Below the pieces are notes generated by a model. The model had not been told where the DNA came from. It saw nothing but the letters and a program-made list of their open reading frames with translations, and did not search any database. Source: Candidatus Anstonellaceae archaeon (GTDB lineage: Archaea; Micrarchaeota; Micrarchaeia; Anstonellales; Anstonellaceae). From it: DNA of 64,000 bases. Made by a program: the position numbers and the translations under genes. Below, piece after piece: positions 12,089 to 32,940 of the stretch. The stretch lies in assembly GCA_038891035.1 (NCBI GenBank), contig JAWAEW010000001.1, positions 7,262-71,261 of the forward strand, in the 5' to 3' direction. The first letter of the stretch is position 1. Each line of letters begins with the position of its first letter.

Positions 12089-12826
12089 TTGGAGCCTAAA
12101 AAGCATTTCCTCAAAATCAAACACTTCCTTGTTTCTTATTTTAAGAAGGCAAACAAAAAAGTTGCAGTGGTTGGGCTTTCTGGAGGACTTGATTCCTCAG
12201 TGACAGTTGCATTATGCGTGCACGCACTCGGGGCGCAAAGAGTCCTTGCCGTCCTTCTTCCTTCCTCTTCAACTCCTCCTCAGGATATGCAAGATGCCAA
12301 AATGCTTGCAAAGATGCTTTCGGTGCAAACAGTCTCTGTAAGCATTGACCCTATTTTGGAAAAATTTGAAAGCCTCAGTTTAAGTAAACTGGAAAAGGCA
12401 AACCTGTCTGCACGGATAAGAATGGCGCTACTTTATCTTTTTGCACAAAAGCAAAATGGACTAGTGGTTGGCACATCTGACAAGTCGGAGCTGATGCTGG
12501 GCTATTTTACAAAATACGGGGACGGGGCGGCAGACCTCTTGCCAATTGCAAGGCTTTACAAGTCTGAAGTAAAAGCTTTGGGGAAATTCTTGCAAATTCC
12601 GCAAAACATACTCTCAAAGCCACCCTCTCCTCAGCTTTGGAAAGGTCAGACTGCCCAAAACGAGCTTGGATTTTCATATGAAGAAGCAGATGCTGTGCTT
12701 ATGGAAATTGAAAAAAAAGCAAGCAAGCATGCTCTTTATAGGCGATTTGGAAAAAAACTGGTTGATTTGATCTTGGAAAGAATGAGACAAAACAGGCACA
12801 AGCTTCTTCTGCCCCCCTCACCTTAG
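12089..12826 (+). CDS. nadE: NH3-dependent NAD+ synthetase
   Basis: GLSGGLDS, ARIRM, GYFTKYGDG. Confidence 0.95.
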   Translation: MEPKKHFLKIKHFLVSYFKKANKKVAVVGLSGGLDSSVTVALCVHALGAQRVLAVLLPSSSTPPQDMQDAKMLAKMLSVQTVSVSIDPILEKFESLSLSKLEKANLSARIRMALLYLFAQKQNGLVVGTSDKSELMLGYFTKYGDGAADLLPIARLYKSEVKALGKFLQIPQNILSKPPSPQLWKGQTAQNELGFSYEEADAVLMEIEKKASKHALYRRFGKKLVDLILERMRQNRHKLLLPPSP

Positions 12827-13320
12827 ACTTTCTCCATCTGCAAAATTAGCTTTGTTGCAGTTTCTGCAATATTCGGGCCAAGCTCCACCATCACCATACC
12901 AACATTAGGCTGACCGTAAATCATTGTACCTGTCTTTGCTTGTGACATTACTACAAGCGCTGCAAGGTCCTCCTCACCAACCACCAAAACAAATCCTTTC
13001 CTTTGTGAAAGGACAGTCTTTATTGCCTCTATCAGCTGTTCTGTTATATGGCCTGGTGGTGAAAGCACTACAAATGCATCTTTCACAAAGCCTGCAAGCT
13101 TTTCCTTTATTTCCTGCCCCACTTCAACGCGCTGTATCTTGAAGTCAAAAATCGAAATGTCAGGAAGGATATTTGCATCTATCAGTTCTACCGTGCATTT
13201 GTCCCCAACTGATATAATAGGCCGAGGGGCATTTAGAAGCATTTCCAATTCACTATTCTGGATTATCCTTCCAAAAGGTCTCCTTACTTCTTCTCGCATA
13301 TTTTCTGGCAGTTTTAGCAT
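12823..13320 (-). CDS. GTP-dependent dephospho-CoA kinase (DUF359)
   Basis: SVGD, D-x-K-x-x-R, PPGHIT, GEEDL, YGQP. Confidence 0.88.
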   Translation of the reverse strand: MLKLPENMREEVRRPFGRIIQNSELEMLLNAPRPIISVGDKCTVELIDANILPDISIFDFKIQRVEVGQEIKEKLAGFVKDAFVVLSPPGHITEQLIEAIKTVLSQRKGFVLVVGEEDLAALVVMSQAKTGTMIYGQPNVGMVMVELGPNIAETATKLILQMEKV

Positions 13321-13973
13321 CTGATTACCTCACATTTTCCGTTTTCATGCCCAACCAAAACAACTGGTCTTTTTTTGGCAAATATCCCGCAATCCACCAC
13401 TCCAGCAATCAGCTTTATTTCTTCTTCAAGTTTTTGCGGTTTGCGCAGTTGCCCAAATTTTGCATGCAAGATGAAATTGCCATTGTCTGAAACGAATTTC
13501 TTTCCATTATCCATTCTCACTTGCACTTCTTCCGCGCCCAACCTTATCAAATCTTCCTTTACTGCTTCTTGTGCAAATGGAATTACCTCAACAGGAACTA
13601 TTCCGGAGAGGCGCTTTCTCAGCTTTTCAGGCCCAATAATTACTACAAATTTTTTTGCTCTATAATCTACTACCTTTTCTCGCACAAGCGCCCCACCCAG
13701 CCCCTTTATTAAATTTCCTTTAGGGTCAACTTGGTCTGCACCATCCACTGCCAAATCTACTTTGCTGGCTTGCTCAAACCCTATCAGCTTTAGACCTAGG
13801 GACTTTGCCTGCCTTTCAGATGCAAAAGAGGTAGGGATGCATTCCACAAAGATGCCTTGCTTTGCAAGAAGCTCTATGAATATTGAAGCAGTACTGCCTG
13901 TGCCAAGACCTACCACCATCCCTTCCTTAACCATCTTCACAGCAGCAGAAGCTGCAGCAAGTTTCGGGTCCAT
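13314..13973 (-). CDS. rpiA: Ribose-5-phosphate isomerase A
   Basis: GLGTGST, DGAD, KGLGGALVREK, DNGNFI. Confidence 0.95.
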   Translation of the reverse strand: MDPKLAAASAAVKMVKEGMVVGLGTGSTASIFIELLAKQGIFVECIPTSFASERQAKSLGLKLIGFEQASKVDLAVDGADQVDPKGNLIKGLGGALVREKVVDYRAKKFVVIIGPEKLRKRLSGIVPVEVIPFAQEAVKEDLIRLGAEEVQVRMDNGKKFVSDNGNFILHAKFGQLRKPQKLEEEIKLIAGVVDCGIFAKKRPVVLVGHENGKCEVIRC

Positions 13974-14009: not shown

Positions 14010-14558
14010 CTAAAGCGTTTTGAGCAAATCCGCCTTTGTTATTATTCCAACTACCTCCCCTTTCTCGAGTACCAAAACCGCAGGATAATACTGCAGCAGC
14101 GGTACAATTGAAGAAATCGGGGCATCAGGCAGAACAGAAGGAAAAGCCTCATCCATCACATCTGCAACTTTTGCACCAGACAGGTTTTGCCCAGCAGAAA
14201 ACCTTTTGACTAGGCCTTGTTCGCTAATGCTTCCGATTATTTTCTTGCCATCGCTTACTGCAAGCTGCGAAATATTCTTTTTCCTCATCTTTGAAATAGC
14301 CTGATGAAGAGGCTGACTGACATAGGCAATCTCTACCCCACAATGCATAATGTCCTTTGCCTTCTTTTCTTTTTGGCGCTGCATCCCTCTTATTGCATGA
14401 ATTATCCTGAGTGCTTTGGAATATGTGGGCTCAACTTTACCTGCCTCTATCTTTGCAAGTAATGATTGGGATACACCTGCGGCCTTTGAAAGCTGCTGCT
14501 GAGTAATCCCAAGCTTCAGCCTCAGCTCTTTTATAAGTCTCAAATCTTCCATCGGCAT
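14010..14558 (-). CDS. XRE/Cro HTH transcriptional regulator with C-terminal CBS pair
   Basis: LRLKLGITQQQLSKAAGVSQSLLAKIEAGKVEP followed by two CBS domains (GSISE, GIITKADLL). Confidence 0.9.
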   Translation of the reverse strand: MPMEDLRLIKELRLKLGITQQQLSKAAGVSQSLLAKIEAGKVEPTYSKALRIIHAIRGMQRQKEKKAKDIMHCGVEIAYVSQPLHQAISKMRKKNISQLAVSDGKKIIGSISEQGLVKRFSAGQNLSGAKVADVMDEAFPSVLPDAPISSIVPLLQYYPAVLVLEKGEVVGIITKADLLKTL

Positions 14559-14583
14559 TAATCTCTCAAAGCCTGTTTTTATT

Positions 14584-14814
14584 TCATTGCATTCTGCCTT
14601 CAGAAAGCGGCCTTCGGCCGCCGAAGTCTCTGTTTTCCTGTTCTACTCTGCTTACATATTCTTCTGCCTTCTTTTTGTCATAGACTATGCCGCCTTGGAT
14701 AAAAGAGCTTATTTTGCCTTCAATTACTGATTTGCAGGCAAAATAAATGTGTGTTTTTTGCGGCAGATTGGCAGATCCACCTAAATTGCTTTGTTGGAGT
14801 GAGATCCACCTCAT
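14584..14814 (-). CDS. Small hypothetical protein
   Basis: Strong RBS GAGGGTGA 4 nt before the ATG. TATA-like AATATAAATA upstream. Confidence 0.55.
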   Translation of the reverse strand: MRWISLQQSNLGGSANLPQKTHIYFACKSVIEGKISSFIQGGIVYDKKKAEEYVSRVEQENRDFGGRRPLSEGRMQ

Positions 14815-14870
14815 CTTATCACCCTCTTTCTGCTGTGCCGCTTGCCCGTATTTATATTTGCTTGACCCAA

Positions 14871-14888
14871 TTATTCATATATGAATAA
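14871..14888. promoter_or_regulatory. Perfect palindrome TTATTCATATATGAATAA (candidate operator, copy 1)
   Basis: 18-bp perfect inverted repeat in intergenic DNA. The same core recurs at 31204-31219. Confidence 0.7.
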
Positions 14889-14930: not shown

Positions 14931-15109
14931 TGCCAAGGGCGTGATTTATTCCCCTCTAAAGGGTTTGAACACGCGACTTCCAGATTTCTCCTTCTGCCTG
15001 CAAACCTCTCTTTGCAGGGAATGCCATTTTATATCATCGCCATCTGGCTCATCACTCATAAGTATCAGCTTATGAGTCTGGCACTCTAACCAGGCTGAGT
15101 TACCTTGGC
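14931..15109 (-). tRNA. tRNA-Met(CAT), elongator type, with two introns (85 nt at 37/38: 14986-15070; 19 nt at 58/59: 14946-14964)
   Basis: Acceptor GCCAAGG/CCTTGGC, D stem ACTC/GAGT, anticodon stem CCAGA/TCTGG, CAT at 15074-15072, T stem GCGTG/CACGC. Loop TTCAAAT is restored after removing intron 2. Confidence 0.9.
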
Positions 15110-15163: not shown

Positions 15164-15416
15164 GGAGCGGCGGGAGGACGGCTCACCGCCCCATTGCGCG
15201 GAGGAAGTTCTGCCCACCGGAAAGAGTCCAAATCGCTTAAGGCGATATCGGGAACAGAAACGCAAACCACTTCCTTCTATGAGAATGACGTAAGGAGAGA
15301 AGGAAAGTCGGGTTGAAACGGCCCGTGTTTGGCAATAGGATGCACGGTGCAAGGCCTGTTTGGCCGCTTAGTCAAATGCCGTCTGAAACAGAAGGCAGAC
15401 TACCACCTGCCGCTCC
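15164..15416 (+). ncRNA. rnpB: RNase P RNA (compact, type-M-like)
   Basis: P1 GGAGCGGCGGGAGG/CCACCTGCCGCTCC, P4 halves GAGGAAGTTCTGCC and AACAGAAGGCAGACTA, conserved ACAGAAAC and TGAAAC elements. Confidence 0.92.
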
Positions 15417-15426
15417 GCGTGGAAAA

Positions 15427-16419
15427 ATGAAGTTCTCAAACGAAGAAATAGAAAGCGAGGCAAAAAGACTTTACAGCAGCCTTGGCAGGCTTGGCTGGAG
15501 CATGGATTCTTGCAGGCTTAGCGCCCCACTTACTTTGGAAATCAACAAGCTCAAAAAGGAAAAAAATGCAATAGTGCTAGCGCACTCCTATCAAACTCCT
15601 GATATAATTTACGGCGTTGCAGATTACACCGGAGATTCGTTTGGTCTTTCAGTTCAGGCAAGCAAAACCCAAGCAGATATCATTGTCTTTGCAGGAGTCA
15701 AATTCATGGCTGAAACTGCAAAGCTTCTCAATCCGGAAAAGCGGGTGTTTTTGCCTTCTTTGGAAGCAGGCTGCTCGCTTGCAGATGGGATAAGTGCAGA
15801 AGATGTTCGAAATCTGAAAAGACAGCATCCGGACACGCCAGTGGTATGCTATATAAACACATCTGCAGAGGTAAAGGCAGAATCTGACGTATGCTGCACT
15901 AGTGCAAATGCTGCAAAAATCATCTCCTCTTTTCGTGAAAAGAAGCTGATTTTTGTGCCTGACCAGCATATGGCACAAAACCTTGCAAGACAGACCAAAA
16001 AAGAACTAATCAGCTGGCACGCCAAATGCATAGTGCATCAGGATTTCGATCAAAGAAAAATCCAGGCAATTCGAGAGGTTTTTAAAGACATAAAAGTTCT
16101 TGCCCATTCTGAATGTTCTCCTCAAGTTGCACTTGCAGCAGATTTGGTAGGGGGCACTTCTGACATGGAAAAATTTGTCGAATCTTCCGAAGCATCTTCG
16201 TTCATGCTCATTACAGAATGCGGTCTTTCTGACAGGCTTAGAGTTCGATTTCCACAAAAGCAATTCATTGGAATGTGTGCACTTTGTCCTTATATGAAGA
16301 AAAATTCTCTTCTTAGCATCTGGCAAGTCCTTTCAAAAGAGACAAATGAAATAAAAATAGATAAGCATATAGCGCAAAGGGCACAAAAGGCACTTCAAAA
16401 AATGCTGCAGCTTTCTTAG
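15427..16419 (+). CDS. nadA: Quinolinate synthase
   Basis: LAHSYQ, GDS, VKFMAETAK, AGCSLA, YINTSAEVKA, CIVH, AHSEC, CPYM. Start moved to ATG 15427 because the longer ORF overlaps the RNase P RNA. Confidence 0.93.
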   Translation: MKFSNEEIESEAKRLYSSLGRLGWSMDSCRLSAPLTLEINKLKKEKNAIVLAHSYQTPDIIYGVADYTGDSFGLSVQASKTQADIIVFAGVKFMAETAKLLNPEKRVFLPSLEAGCSLADGISAEDVRNLKRQHPDTPVVCYINTSAEVKAESDVCCTSANAAKIISSFREKKLIFVPDQHMAQNLARQTKKELISWHAKCIVHQDFDQRKIQAIREVFKDIKVLAHSECSPQVALAADLVGGTSDMEKFVESSEASSFMLITECGLSDRLRVRFPQKQFIGMCALCPYMKKNSLLSIWQVLSKETNEIKIDKHIAQRAQKALQKMLQLS

Positions 16420-29970: not shown

Positions 29971-31149
29971 TTATATTCCTGCTTCTTTCTTTAGCCTCTG
30001 AGCCTTATCGGTTCTTTCCCATGTGAATTCTTCCTCTTCCCTTCCAAAATGCCCATAAGCTGCAGTCTTTTTGTAAATTGGGCGCCTCAGTTTCAAATCA
30101 GAAATTATATGTCCAACCTTCAGCCTGAAATTCTCCTTTATAAGCTGGACAATTCTGTCATTTGGTATTTTTCCTGTCCCAAAAGTCTCCACAAAAATAG
30201 AAATCGGATCAGAAACTCCTATCACATATGCAAGTTGAACCTCGCACCTTTGCGCAATTCCAGCAGCAACCAGGTTTTTTGCAATATACCTTGCCATATA
30301 ACAAGCCGAGCGGTCCACTTTAGTTGGGTCCTTACCAGAAAAGCAGCCCCCACCATGGGCAGCCATCCCTCCATAAGTATCCACAATTATCTTCCTGCCA
30401 GTAAGTCCAGTATCTGCCGCTGGGCCTCCAAGCACAAACCTGCCTGTGCCATTTACAATTACTTCGGTGTCGTGCTTGAAATATTCCCCTAGCACTGGTT
30501 CTACTACATACTTTTGCAAATCCCTCTTTATCATTTCCCTATCCACACTTTTTCCTTGGTATTGCTCATCGTGCTGGGCAGCAATTACAACTGTGGTTGC
30601 CTTTATGGGGCGGTTGTCTTGGTCGTATTCTACTGTTACTTGCGTCTTTCCGTCCGGCCTCAGATAAGGAACAATTCCTTCCTTTCTTACCTTGGCAAGC
30701 TGAAACGAAAGTCTATTTGCAAGCATTATAGGTAAAGGCATAAGCTGAGGGGTTTCATTCACTGCATATCCAAACATTATACCTTGGTCCCCTGCCCCAA
30801 GCTGCTCCAAATCCTCCTCCTTTACACCACGAGCAATATCAGGTGATTGGGCGTGGATAGAGGAGAGCACGCCCACACTTTTGCTGTCAAAATGATACTC
30901 TGGCTTGGTATAGCCTATGTCTTCCAGCACTTTTCTTACCATACCATCAATGTCGCAGTAGCCTTCAGTAGTTATCTCACCCGCAACCACCACAAGGCCC
31001 GTAGTTGCAAGTGCTTCCACTGCCACATGCGAGCGAGGATCCTGAGCAATCAAATCGTCCAAGATTGCATCGGCGATCTGGTCGCAAACCTTGTCTGGAT
31101 GGCCTTCAGTGACTGATTCAGATGTGAATAAATAATTTTTTTTGCTCAT
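29971..31149 (-). CDS. metK: S-adenosylmethionine synthetase, bacterial/eukaryotic type
   Basis: [61 protein letters not shown] before MSKK. Confidence 0.96.
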
Positions 31150-31203
31150 CGGATCACCTGTTGTGAATTTTTCTTTCATTATTATATTTTCTTTTGCATC
31201 ATT

Positions 31204-31219
31204 TATTCATATATGAATA
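31204..31219. promoter_or_regulatory. Perfect palindrome TATTCATATATGAATA (candidate operator, copy 2)
   Basis: Identical to the core at 14872-14887. Lies between divergent metK and the PHP gene. Confidence 0.7.
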
Positions 31220-31281
31220 TCATCTTTGCTCTCTAAGACGCAAGTTTTTTAAAGTGGTTATAGCTGAAATATAGTGGTTTT

Positions 31282-32940
31282 ATGGCATATATTTTAGTCC
31301 CTTCAAAAAAGAACATTTCGCATGCGCACCGAATGCTGGCAGAAGCCCTCGCATCAAACGGCTTTTTCGCATCAAAGGGAGTGCTTGCTGACCGATATTA
31401 CAAAAAAGGAGAGCCATCTTCTCAAACTTTCTTTGTGTATGGCCGTTCATTTGAGCCTGACGGCAGCACAAACCAAAAGTCCGCATTCAACATCTGCGTG
31501 CTTGATACTGGAAGAAGGCTGAGAGTGTGGTTTTCAAGCACAGAATCCTCACCTCAGGCAACTCAATTCGGATACCACCAATACATTCACTTTTTCTCCT
31601 TTTCAGCAGGCAACCTCTCCAAGTTCATTGCGCAAGTTGTAGATGAAGCCATAAAGGCTTCATGGTGCAAGCCAGAATCTTCTTACAGGATTTTTATCCA
31701 TAATCATCTTGCAGAACTTGGTGGAGTGAGCTTGAACAACACACTTCAAATGTACGACGACGGCCGTTCTTCCTCAGCGGCACTGCTTTACAATTTGGTG
31801 CTTTCGCATGCTGATTTTGTGGCAATTACACATCACAACCACTTCCTGCTTGCACCTTGGAAACGCTTTGAGGAGCAGGCATCTCAATATTCCGTGAGTC
31901 TAATTGCAGGCTTTGAAGCAACTTTACCTATTTTCCAGTTTGAGCCATGGTTTGCAGGTACACCAGAAGGCAAGGTACACAATCCAAACGGCCCACATAT
32001 TGTGCTTCTTTTTGATAGTCCTGCTCTTGCTTCTGAATTTTGGGGCAGATACTTTTCTGGCAGGCCACAATACAAATACGCTCCAACCGCATCAGCAGGG
32101 GTTGAGCTTTTTGCAATCTCTGACGAAATAGACAAGAAATACAGTGGCAGAATTGCAAAGCTTATCGCCCACCCTGTTTGCGATGTTTCCTTACCTGATG
32201 TAGGACTAGTAAATCGCGTAGCAAAAGGAGAAATTTCAGTCTCAGAAATGCTTCAGCTTATCAATCGCTCCTCAGGGATTGCAGTATTCAACCTTTCTTT
32301 GAACGATAAACCTATCGATTTTGGCCTGTATGCTTATCAAGTAAAGGAATGTTCGTATTTTTCAAAGGAAGAAAAGCAGCGCAGACTAAAGAATATCGCT
32401 GAAGCAGAAGAATACTTCAACAGTATTGTCAAAGCAGCAGGGCTTGAAGGCCTCACACCAAACAACATCAACTTTGCTCTATCTTTGCAGTTCGACAAGA
32501 CACTAATTCCTTTTGTTGATACTGACGCACACAATTTTGACTGGGGATATACTAATCTTGGCCCTTTCCATTGGATGATTCGCTCTATGGGACTTTTTGC
32601 AGCAGGCCACAATACACTTTCATTTGATGTTTTGCCTGCTGTCAAGCCCTCCCCAGCAGAAGTAGTCTATTTCATTGAAAAGAAAGGCAAAACGGAAGGA
32701 TGCCATTGGTCTTTCACTTTATTTTCCGAGATAAAAGACGGTCACCTTCAAATAACTCTAAAAAGAAGGGAGTCCGCCTGGTCGCAAAAAATATTCAATC
32801 TGCTTGAAAAGGCATACTATTATGTAAAGCAAGTGACCATATTGGGTTCTGATACTGCTCAGGCCATGGCAGATCAGGGCTCACTTCACGAGCCTTTAGT
32901 AATGCTTCGCGGCTCAATACCAGGTTCCATACCAAAATAG
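31282..32940 (+). CDS. PHP-superfamily metal-dependent phosphoesterase-like protein with N-terminal extension
   Basis: IHNH, DFVAITHHN, IAGFEA, GPHIV, IAHP, DTDAH in canonical PHP order. Confidence 0.7.
   Translation: MAYILVPSKKNISHAHRMLAEALASNGFFASKGVLADRYYKKGEPSSQTFFVYGRSFEPDGSTNQKSAFNICVLDTGRRLRVWFSSTESSPQATQFGYHQYIHFFSFSAGNLSKFIAQVVDEAIKASWCKPESSYRIFIHNHLAELGGVSLNNTLQMYDDGRSSSAALLYNLVLSHADFVAITHHNHFLLAPWKRFEEQASQYSVSLIAGFEATLPIFQFEPWFAGTPEGKVHNPNGPHIVLLFDSPALASEFWGRYFSGRPQYKYAPTASAGVELFAISDEIDKKYSGRIAKLIAHPVCDVSLPDVGLVNRVAKGEISVSEMLQLINRSSGIAVFNLSLNDKPIDFGLYAYQVKECSYFSKEEKQRRLKNIAEAEEYFNSIVKAAGLEGLTPNNINFALSLQFDKTLIPFVDTDAHNFDWGYTNLGPFHWMIRSMGLFAAGHNTLSFDVLPAVKPSPAEVVYFIEKKGKTEGCHWSFTLFSEIKDGHLQITLKRRESAWSQKIFNLLEKAYYYVKQVTILGSDTAQAMADQGSLHEPLVMLRGSIPGSIPK

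Follow-up and report, generated by a model that had tools for sequence, protein, structure and literature searches.

A conserved palindrome connects a candidate HTH-CBS regulator with its own operon and the SAM synthetase gene in Anstonellaceae archaea

In bacteria, methionine and S-adenosylmethionine (SAM) genes are regulated by MetJ, SahR and SAM riboswitches; as far as our literature search shows, no archaeal counterpart is named. MetJ of Escherichia coli is a ribbon-helix-helix repressor that lacks a CBS domain, binds its co-repressor SAM directly and reads 8-bp metboxes, SahR combines an ArsR domain with a methyltransferase-like domain, and CcpN of Bacillus subtilis, which carries an N-terminal helix-turn-helix (HTH) and two CBS domains sensing adenine nucleotides, controls gluconeogenic genes. 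SahR is described as an ArsR-family regulator of the SAM cycle in Proteobacteria that responds to S-adenosylhomocysteine (SAH) (PMC4239095), archaeal CBS pairs that bind SAM and methylthioadenosine (MTA) are established for MJ0100 (PMC13381585; PDB 3KPB, 3KPC, 3KPD), and HhpR of Pyrococcus yayanosii is presented as a transcriptional activator with four CBS domains, proteins with HTH plus CBS domains being mentioned for Thermococcales with no function given there (PMC11705074). Here we analysed a 64,000-nt stretch of contig JAWAEW010000001.1 from a Candidatus Anstonellaceae archaeon (the window), in which one palindrome precedes both the operon of an HTH-CBS protein and metK, the gene of a bacterial-type SAM synthetase. 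The original prediction, made from the letters of this DNA, was that the HTH-CBS protein controls metK and itself; conservation, co-occurrence and gene neighbourhood support this idea, and the palindrome is quite probably the operator through which the protein would control its own operon and SAM synthetase. The accompanying remark that such an archaeal regulon appears to be undescribed agrees with our full-text literature search (subscription-only papers and supplements being outside its scope), which found no description of an archaeal HTH-CBS regulator of methionine or SAM genes.

The element, TATTCATATATGAATA, is a perfect 16-bp palindrome with the core ATTC-N6-GAAT and occurs in two exact copies without strand assignment, operator copy 1 at 14872–14887 and operator copy 2 at 31204–31219. 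Copy 1 heads a minus-strand operon in which a small open reading frame (ORF) is followed by the regulator gene, rpiA and a dephospho-CoA kinase gene. The regulator (14010–14558, minus strand, 182 aa) is of the HTH (XRE/HTH_3)-CBS-pair transcription regulator type and is the protein proposed to bind the operator. Copy 2 lies 16 kb from the regulator operon, in the divergent region between metK (29971–31149, minus strand) and a gene for a 552-aa protein. On the minus strand, 12 nt (ATTGGGTCAAGC) separate copy 1 from a downstream TATA-like box, AAATATAA at 14852–14859, and 14 nt (AATGATGCAAAAGA) separate copy 2 from the same downstream box at 31182–31189, each box having a Shine-Dalgarno-like GGTGAT and an ATG to its 3' side. 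Both boxes are putative, being read from the sequence; the position of the first is kept in relatives, and for the second the module of site, 11–14 nt and TATA is conserved. The bacterial-type MetK was identified by the N, M and C domains of Pfam S-AdoMet_synt (4e-41 to 1e-67), its start was placed at 31149 through alignment with relatives, and AGGTGATCC precedes the gene. The metK leader from TATA to ATG measures about 30 nt, and an Rfam gathering scan of the whole window returned only RNase P RNA and four tRNAs and no SAM riboswitch. The two exact copies, their intergenic position and the 12–14 nt to AAATATAA had all been read correctly from the DNA, and the gene calls of the operon and of metK were borne out when checked with Pfam and NCBIfam.

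In the whole source genome (17 contigs, 810,053 bp, 99% complete) a search for TATTCATATATGAATA that tolerated two mismatches hit these two places alone, and one with the reversed control pattern hit nothing. When a position weight matrix (PWM) built from 52 sites of other genomes was scored over this genome, both palindromes topped the ranking at 21.6 bits and the next match, inside an ORF, reached 17.2 bits. A motif scattered at random is not what was found, with the two palindromes leading the ranking of this genome by more than 4 bits. The lower matches were rejected as targets, as they lie inside ORFs or before unrelated or unknown genes (C9:2940, C5:516, C3:66524 and C6:21558). Within the window there are three matches if one with three mismatches is counted, against a mean of 0.37 in dinucleotide shuffles, none of 100 reaching three. 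This near-copy, GATTCAGATGTGAATA at 31115–31130 (no strand assigned), falls within metK codons 7–12 (LFTSES) and was rejected as a second operator; an in-frame LFTSES core is present in 5 of 30 metK loci, and it is most likely a coding by-product because one of them, that of G030, has the same core there in a genome without the regulator.

Phylogenetic footprinting revealed that the motif is kept at both promoters. Sixty relatives of the order were searched for the regulator and MetK, and the upstream DNA was read for the core ATTC-N6-GAAT. Within 700 nt upstream of the regulator the core is present in 23 of 30 loci, with 34 cores in 21.0 kb of upstream DNA versus none in the remaining 82.8 kb. 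Within 200 nt upstream of metK it was found in 17 of 30 loci, with 20 cores in 6.0 kb versus five in 113 kb, all five in LFTSES codons, and further metK upstream regions (one of only 96 nt) had it in 14 of 20 cases, which brings the overall figure to 31 of 50. The half-sites are fixed among the relatives, and the spacer and flanks vary. The geometry of site, 11–14 nt and TATA is retained both before metK and at the regulator operon's distal promoter, where 17 relatives have an orthologous site at the same distance from TATA. In 17 relatives the regulator gene's own TATA box is overlapped by a second, proximal site (GAATATAAA); the genome studied here has the distal type only. In G038, which is without bacterial-type MetK, ATTCCTTTAGGAATA is located 66 nt upstream of the archaeal-type SAM synthetase gene (methionine adenosyltransferase, MAT).

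The palindrome at metK also goes with the presence of the HTH-CBS regulator gene. With presence of the regulator defined as a full-length match at an E-value of 1e-20 or better, 30 of 32 genomes possessing it carry the motif at metK, versus 1 of 15 genomes without it, a contrast that includes within-genus comparisons and overstates independence, the compared genomes being kin. In G018, rpiA comes straight after the small ORF with no regulator gene in the conserved slot between them, and the motif is absent both there and at metK; the same co-loss of regulator and motif distinguishes G051 from G043 and G057 in another genus. Such natural regulator deletions coinciding with loss of the site come close to a genetic test. 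In a further genus (g2), a divergent regulator (27–30% identity) is encoded directly upstream of metK on the same strand and is preceded by the palindrome TATTCC-N5-GGAATA. This regulator has a 5-residue HTH insertion and a changed recognition helix, and the changed HTH fits the one-base wider half-site spacing.

The association is not confined to the order. When one genome per species was scanned with a profile, at least 583 loci with relatives of the regulator emerged, of which the best 80 were kept; they come from metagenome-assembled genomes (MAGs) of Micrarchaeota, Bathyarchaeia, Woesearchaeota, Nanoarchaeia, Aenigmatarchaeota, Thermoproteota and Nitrososphaerota, and their regulators are 41–56% identical to that of the window over the full length. 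In the 200 nt preceding the regulator gene, 62 of the 80 loci contain the exact core (4.1 cores per kb there versus 0.056 per kb in the rest of these loci), and many of the remaining 18 have a one-mismatch core in the same place, the consensus being TATTCCAAAAAGAATATA. A methionine or SAM gene is found in the 3-kb flanks of 39 of the 80 loci by tblastn over all 80: 13 encode MetK, 10 archaeal MAT, 10 the homocysteine enzyme HcyBio (COG1900 plus CBS), three Cys/Met pyridoxal phosphate enzymes and three methionyl-tRNA synthetase (MetRS), so that SAM synthetases of two types make up 23 of the 39. Upstream genes of this set are all divergent from the regulator, and three downstream MAT genes are on its strand; where regulator and SAM synthetase or homocysteine gene diverge, the core lies between them. 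Pfam searches covering 47 of 77 neighbour ORFs on the upstream side and 65 of 75 on the downstream side agree with this, although the tblastn count is the unbiased one, since the Pfam-scanned ORFs had been picked by length. Linkage to rpiA was seen only in Micrarchaeota loci. In a further Micrarchaeota chromosome, a site is situated 55 nt upstream of metK and the regulator adjoins MetRS.

Two side observations were made in these loci. In one Micrarchaeota MAG the gene divergent from the regulator (L184:410-2734, minus strand) encodes a bacterial-type MetK with an intein and a LAGLIDADG endonuclease domain. In seven Bathyarchaeia loci an ABC-transporter ATPase gene follows the regulator on the same strand, and the regulator is divergent from the homocysteine enzyme in the six of these with enough upstream DNA (L179 offers only 124 nt); this transporter may be a methionine-related uptake system.

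Taken across genomes, the comparison shows that the putative operator is conserved and tied to the HTH-CBS regulator family, that this family carries it before its own genes as predicted for autoregulation, and that SAM synthetase is its main predicted target in Micrarchaeota. For the present genome we propose a regulon of two promoters, that of the regulator's own operon and that of metK. The operator would here act in trans on metK 16 kb away, which the divergent-gene cases cannot show. A regulator dimer would read the half-sites ATTC and GAAT, whose centres are 10 bp, or one helical turn, apart. With the site 12–14 bp upstream of TATA at both promoters, its centre would fall near −50, where archaeal activators usually sit, and autorepression is implied in the relatives by the overlap of their proximal site with the regulator's TATA box. 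The CBS pair would be the sensor, and an adenosyl ligand would change DNA binding in such a way that SAM synthetase output follows the methyl-donor pool. As to the sign of control, a ligand-free protein that activates metK from −50 and represses itself, to be released by the ligand, is slightly favoured over a MetJ-like co-repressor mode.

A number of findings weigh against this reading, some through its targets and others, given further below, through its ligand. Over the whole genome the loose core ATTC-N6-GAAT shows no enrichment (25 sites versus 24 for the inverted-arm control), and the regulon should therefore be small in this genome. The genome-wide scan that was expected to bring up sahH and methylation genes did place the two palindromes first, but by PWM it revealed no third target (sahH or methyltransferases) in this genome. 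In three Bathyarchaeia genomes in which MAT is encoded elsewhere, there is no core within 600 nt of MAT, and among the archaeal-MAT promoters of the order only one of three readable ones has the core, G039 and G046 being without it and G048 being cut at a contig end. The set of targets therefore appears to differ between lineages. Extra palindromes in five relatives precede genes for GAPDH, agmatinase/UbiA, DUF932 or unknown proteins, or lie in ORFs, and extra sites in three Bathyarchaeia genomes and one further Micrarchaeota genome revealed no recurring target. Exceptions to the co-occurrence run in both directions: G055 is without the motif at metK despite a regulator match, as is G041, in which that match contains a TAA, and G007 has the motif although no regulator was found. 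In G007 a 369-aa TnpB/IS200-IS605-like gene (L087, G007:C66:177-1286) stands directly upstream of rpiA, the slot of the regulator in other members of the genus, and the regulator may be unassembled because the rpiA contig begins with this TnpB-like gene.

The regulator itself consists of an HTH_3 domain of the Cro/C1 type at residues 9–55 (E=1e-12) and a C-terminal CBS pair, or Bateman module, matched in two stretches (E=3.5e-18). Its AlphaFold2 model (pLDDT 90.7) has three short helices and a long linker helix. The recognition-helix residues S28, Q29, S30, A33, K34 and E36 and the motif GIITKAD of the second CBS domain are invariant in 18 diverse sequences. The closest public homologue is from Candidatus Anstonellaceae (Micrarchaeota), and members of the family carry no annotation beyond 'CBS domain-containing protein' or 'predicted transcriptional regulator'. 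Sequence and fold searches of the PDB returned generic CBS pairs and small HTH proteins only and no full-length template, for which reason the ligand cannot be read from structure.

SAM is the natural ligand candidate because the predicted targets are SAM synthetase and its precursor pathway and because the CBS pairs of MJ0100 bind SAM and MTA; we give SAM about an even chance of being the ligand, and consider SAH or MTA on the one hand and adenylates or other molecules on the other to be distinctly less probable, each to the same degree. The Foldseek matches (E about 1e-11) are to generic CBS pairs, including binders of AMP, ADP and ATP and of cyclic di-AMP. Identity between the regulator's CBS pair and the SAM/MTA-binding HcyBio type is no more than 21% (E=0.004), too weak a similarity for the ligand to be transferred. 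The presence of rpiA and the CoA kinase gene in the operon would be equally compatible with SAM and with an adenylate or ribose signal. An alternative built on these facts keeps the same regulator and operator and supposes that the CBS pair senses adenylates, energy charge or a ribose or nucleotide signal, coordinating the supply of SAM, CoA and ribose-5-phosphate. It draws on the persistence of rpiA and the dephospho-CoA kinase gene in the operon (20 of 21 genus loci), on the nearest solved folds, among them the AMP/ADP/ATP-binding CBS pair of AcuB and the cyclic di-AMP-binding one of OpuCA, and on the low identity to the HcyBio/MJ0100 type. On the other hand, methionine and SAM genes recur as neighbours in 39 of the 80 loci, whereas nucleotide genes do not (one CTP synthase and one 5'-nucleotidase), and the rpiA linkage is confined to Micrarchaeota, which leaves this alternative rather unlikely.

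It is far less plausible that another factor, for example of the ArsR or Lrp type, binds the palindrome and that the HTH-CBS gene is merely one of its targets, since the motif at metK follows the presence of the regulator (30 of 32 versus 1 of 15), both are lost together in G018 and G051, 62 of 80 loci from several phyla have the site immediately ahead of the regulator gene, and in genus g2 a changed HTH accompanies changed half-site spacing. A chance, mobile or recombination repeat with no part in regulation is hardly credible as an explanation of the two copies, for even though AT-rich intergenic DNA favours short palindromes and there are only two copies, no shuffle of 100 reaches the observed count, orthologous sites keep half-sites and TATA distance as spacer and flanks diverge, and the genome has no copies elsewhere.

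Of the other genes of the operon, the small ORF (14584–14814, minus strand, 76 aa) is the first after operator copy 1 and belongs to no Pfam or NCBIfam family. Homologues were found in G004, G010, G008, G014 and G018, and the ORF represents a small conserved family with the motif YFQCKSV..G..PF..G, seen in five loci; in other relatives the slot between the distal and proximal operators is filled by unrelated small genes, such as one for a TPR-like protein. Ribose-5-phosphate isomerase A (RpiA; 13314–13973, minus strand; Pfam Rib_5-P_isom_A, 4.4e-54) is encoded 36 nt after the regulator gene, and the stop of rpiA is overlapped by a gene of the DUF359, GTP-dependent dephospho-CoA kinase family (12823–13320, minus strand; Pfam 2.5e-26), whose product matches NCBIfam NF041125 at 3e-24, under the equivalog cut-off. 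The gene order regulator-rpiA-dephospho-CoA kinase is kept in 20 of 21 genus loci (the G009 locus ends inside rpiA). The operon is flanked by nadE (NAD synthase, 12089–12826, plus strand) and nadA (quinolinate synthase, 15313–16419, plus strand), as it is in many relatives of the genus, and with these flanks four adenosyl-cofactor-related genes cluster here.

At the other promoter, the gene divergent from metK (31282–32940, plus strand) encodes the 552-aa protein, which has no Pfam or NCBIfam match and is syntenic with metK in G004, G010, G019, G013 and partly in G011. A lead from a protein atlas to a PHP domain (0.85) was below a usable level and was dropped. The gene is possibly a further target of the operator; it has its own conserved promoter element, TTTTTAAAGTGG, at 31244–31255 (plus strand), and the mRNA looks leaderless because this element is about 30 nt before the ATG. 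MetK itself falls into two clades within the genus, with 72–81% and 60–64% identity to the MetK of the window. A second, divergent MetK-like gene (28–32% identity) is present in G002, G007 and G016, where it and metK share the intergenic region that bears the motif, which contains two sites.

Upstream of operator copy 1, about 45 nt away, ends a tRNA-Met(CAT) gene (14932–15109, minus strand; manual reading). It is real, as had been proposed, though it carries two introns (15069–14985 and 14963–14945), an insert of 85 nt at the canonical position 37/38 and one of 19 nt in the T-loop. In unspliced DNA it was missed by ARAGORN, also with the intron options, and by Rfam at E-values up to 1; with both inserts removed in a script, ARAGORN calls tRNA-Met(CAT). 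Most relatives of the genus have the T-arm sequence of this tRNA again a short distance upstream of their distal operator. Next to the tRNA gene lies that of an archaeal RNase P RNA at 15166–15414 (plus strand, 100 bits). Because the longest nadA ORF begins inside this RNA, nadA itself probably starts further downstream; within that ORF, residue 76 is the first one matched by Pfam NadA.

Beyond this locus, we tentatively entertain, at somewhat less than even chances, an ancient SAM-sensing XRE-HTH/CBS factor that would govern methionine and SAM homeostasis across archaeal phyla as a counterpart of MetJ and the SAM riboswitches. Its operator (TATTCC-N4-GGAATA-like) would have been kept and its targets swapped among bacterial-type MetK, archaeal MAT, the homocysteine enzyme and MetRS; it would activate from about −50 and repress at TATA, and in genome-reduced Micrarchaeota it would also tie the supply of ribose-5-phosphate and CoA to the methyl-donor pool. 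A concrete protein, a 14–16 bp site and a short list of candidate ligands make archaeal methionine/SAM regulation directly testable, and the regulator may be of use as a protein-based SAM-responsive switch.

Among the described systems, CcpN resembles the present regulator in build, with an HTH and a CBS pair acting at promoters, a likeness by domain description only; unlike in CcpN, the predicted targets here are methionine and SAM genes and not gluconeogenic ones, and no CcpN model was among the 23 NCBIfam families matched. HhpR is likewise an archaeal CBS-domain transcription factor at an upstream promoter site, but it is described as having no HTH, responding to hydrostatic pressure and acting on other targets (PMC11705074). 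MJ0100/HcyBio (COG1900), whose gene lies next to the regulator gene and diverges from it in 10 of the 80 loci, shares the use of an archaeal CBS pair as a SAM/MTA sensor in methionine metabolism; it is an allosterically regulated enzyme and not a DNA-binding protein (PMC13381585). From SahR the system differs in fold and sensor. The two have in common a palindrome as binding site, definition by comparative genomics, SAM-cycle genes including metK as targets and an adenosyl metabolite as effector, the latter predicted here; SahR is bacterial and has SAH as its effector (PMC4239095). Pfam reports only HTH_3-clan and CBS families in the regulator and no MetJ or ribbon-helix-helix domain. Like MetJ, the HTH-CBS protein would be a feedback regulator of metK or methionine genes and of its own gene, with repeated or palindromic operators and a gene often divergent from a met gene; unlike MetJ, it combines an XRE-type HTH with a CBS pair and would read ATTC-N6-GAAT at archaeal TATA promoters, which suggests a functional analogue of MetJ and not a relative.

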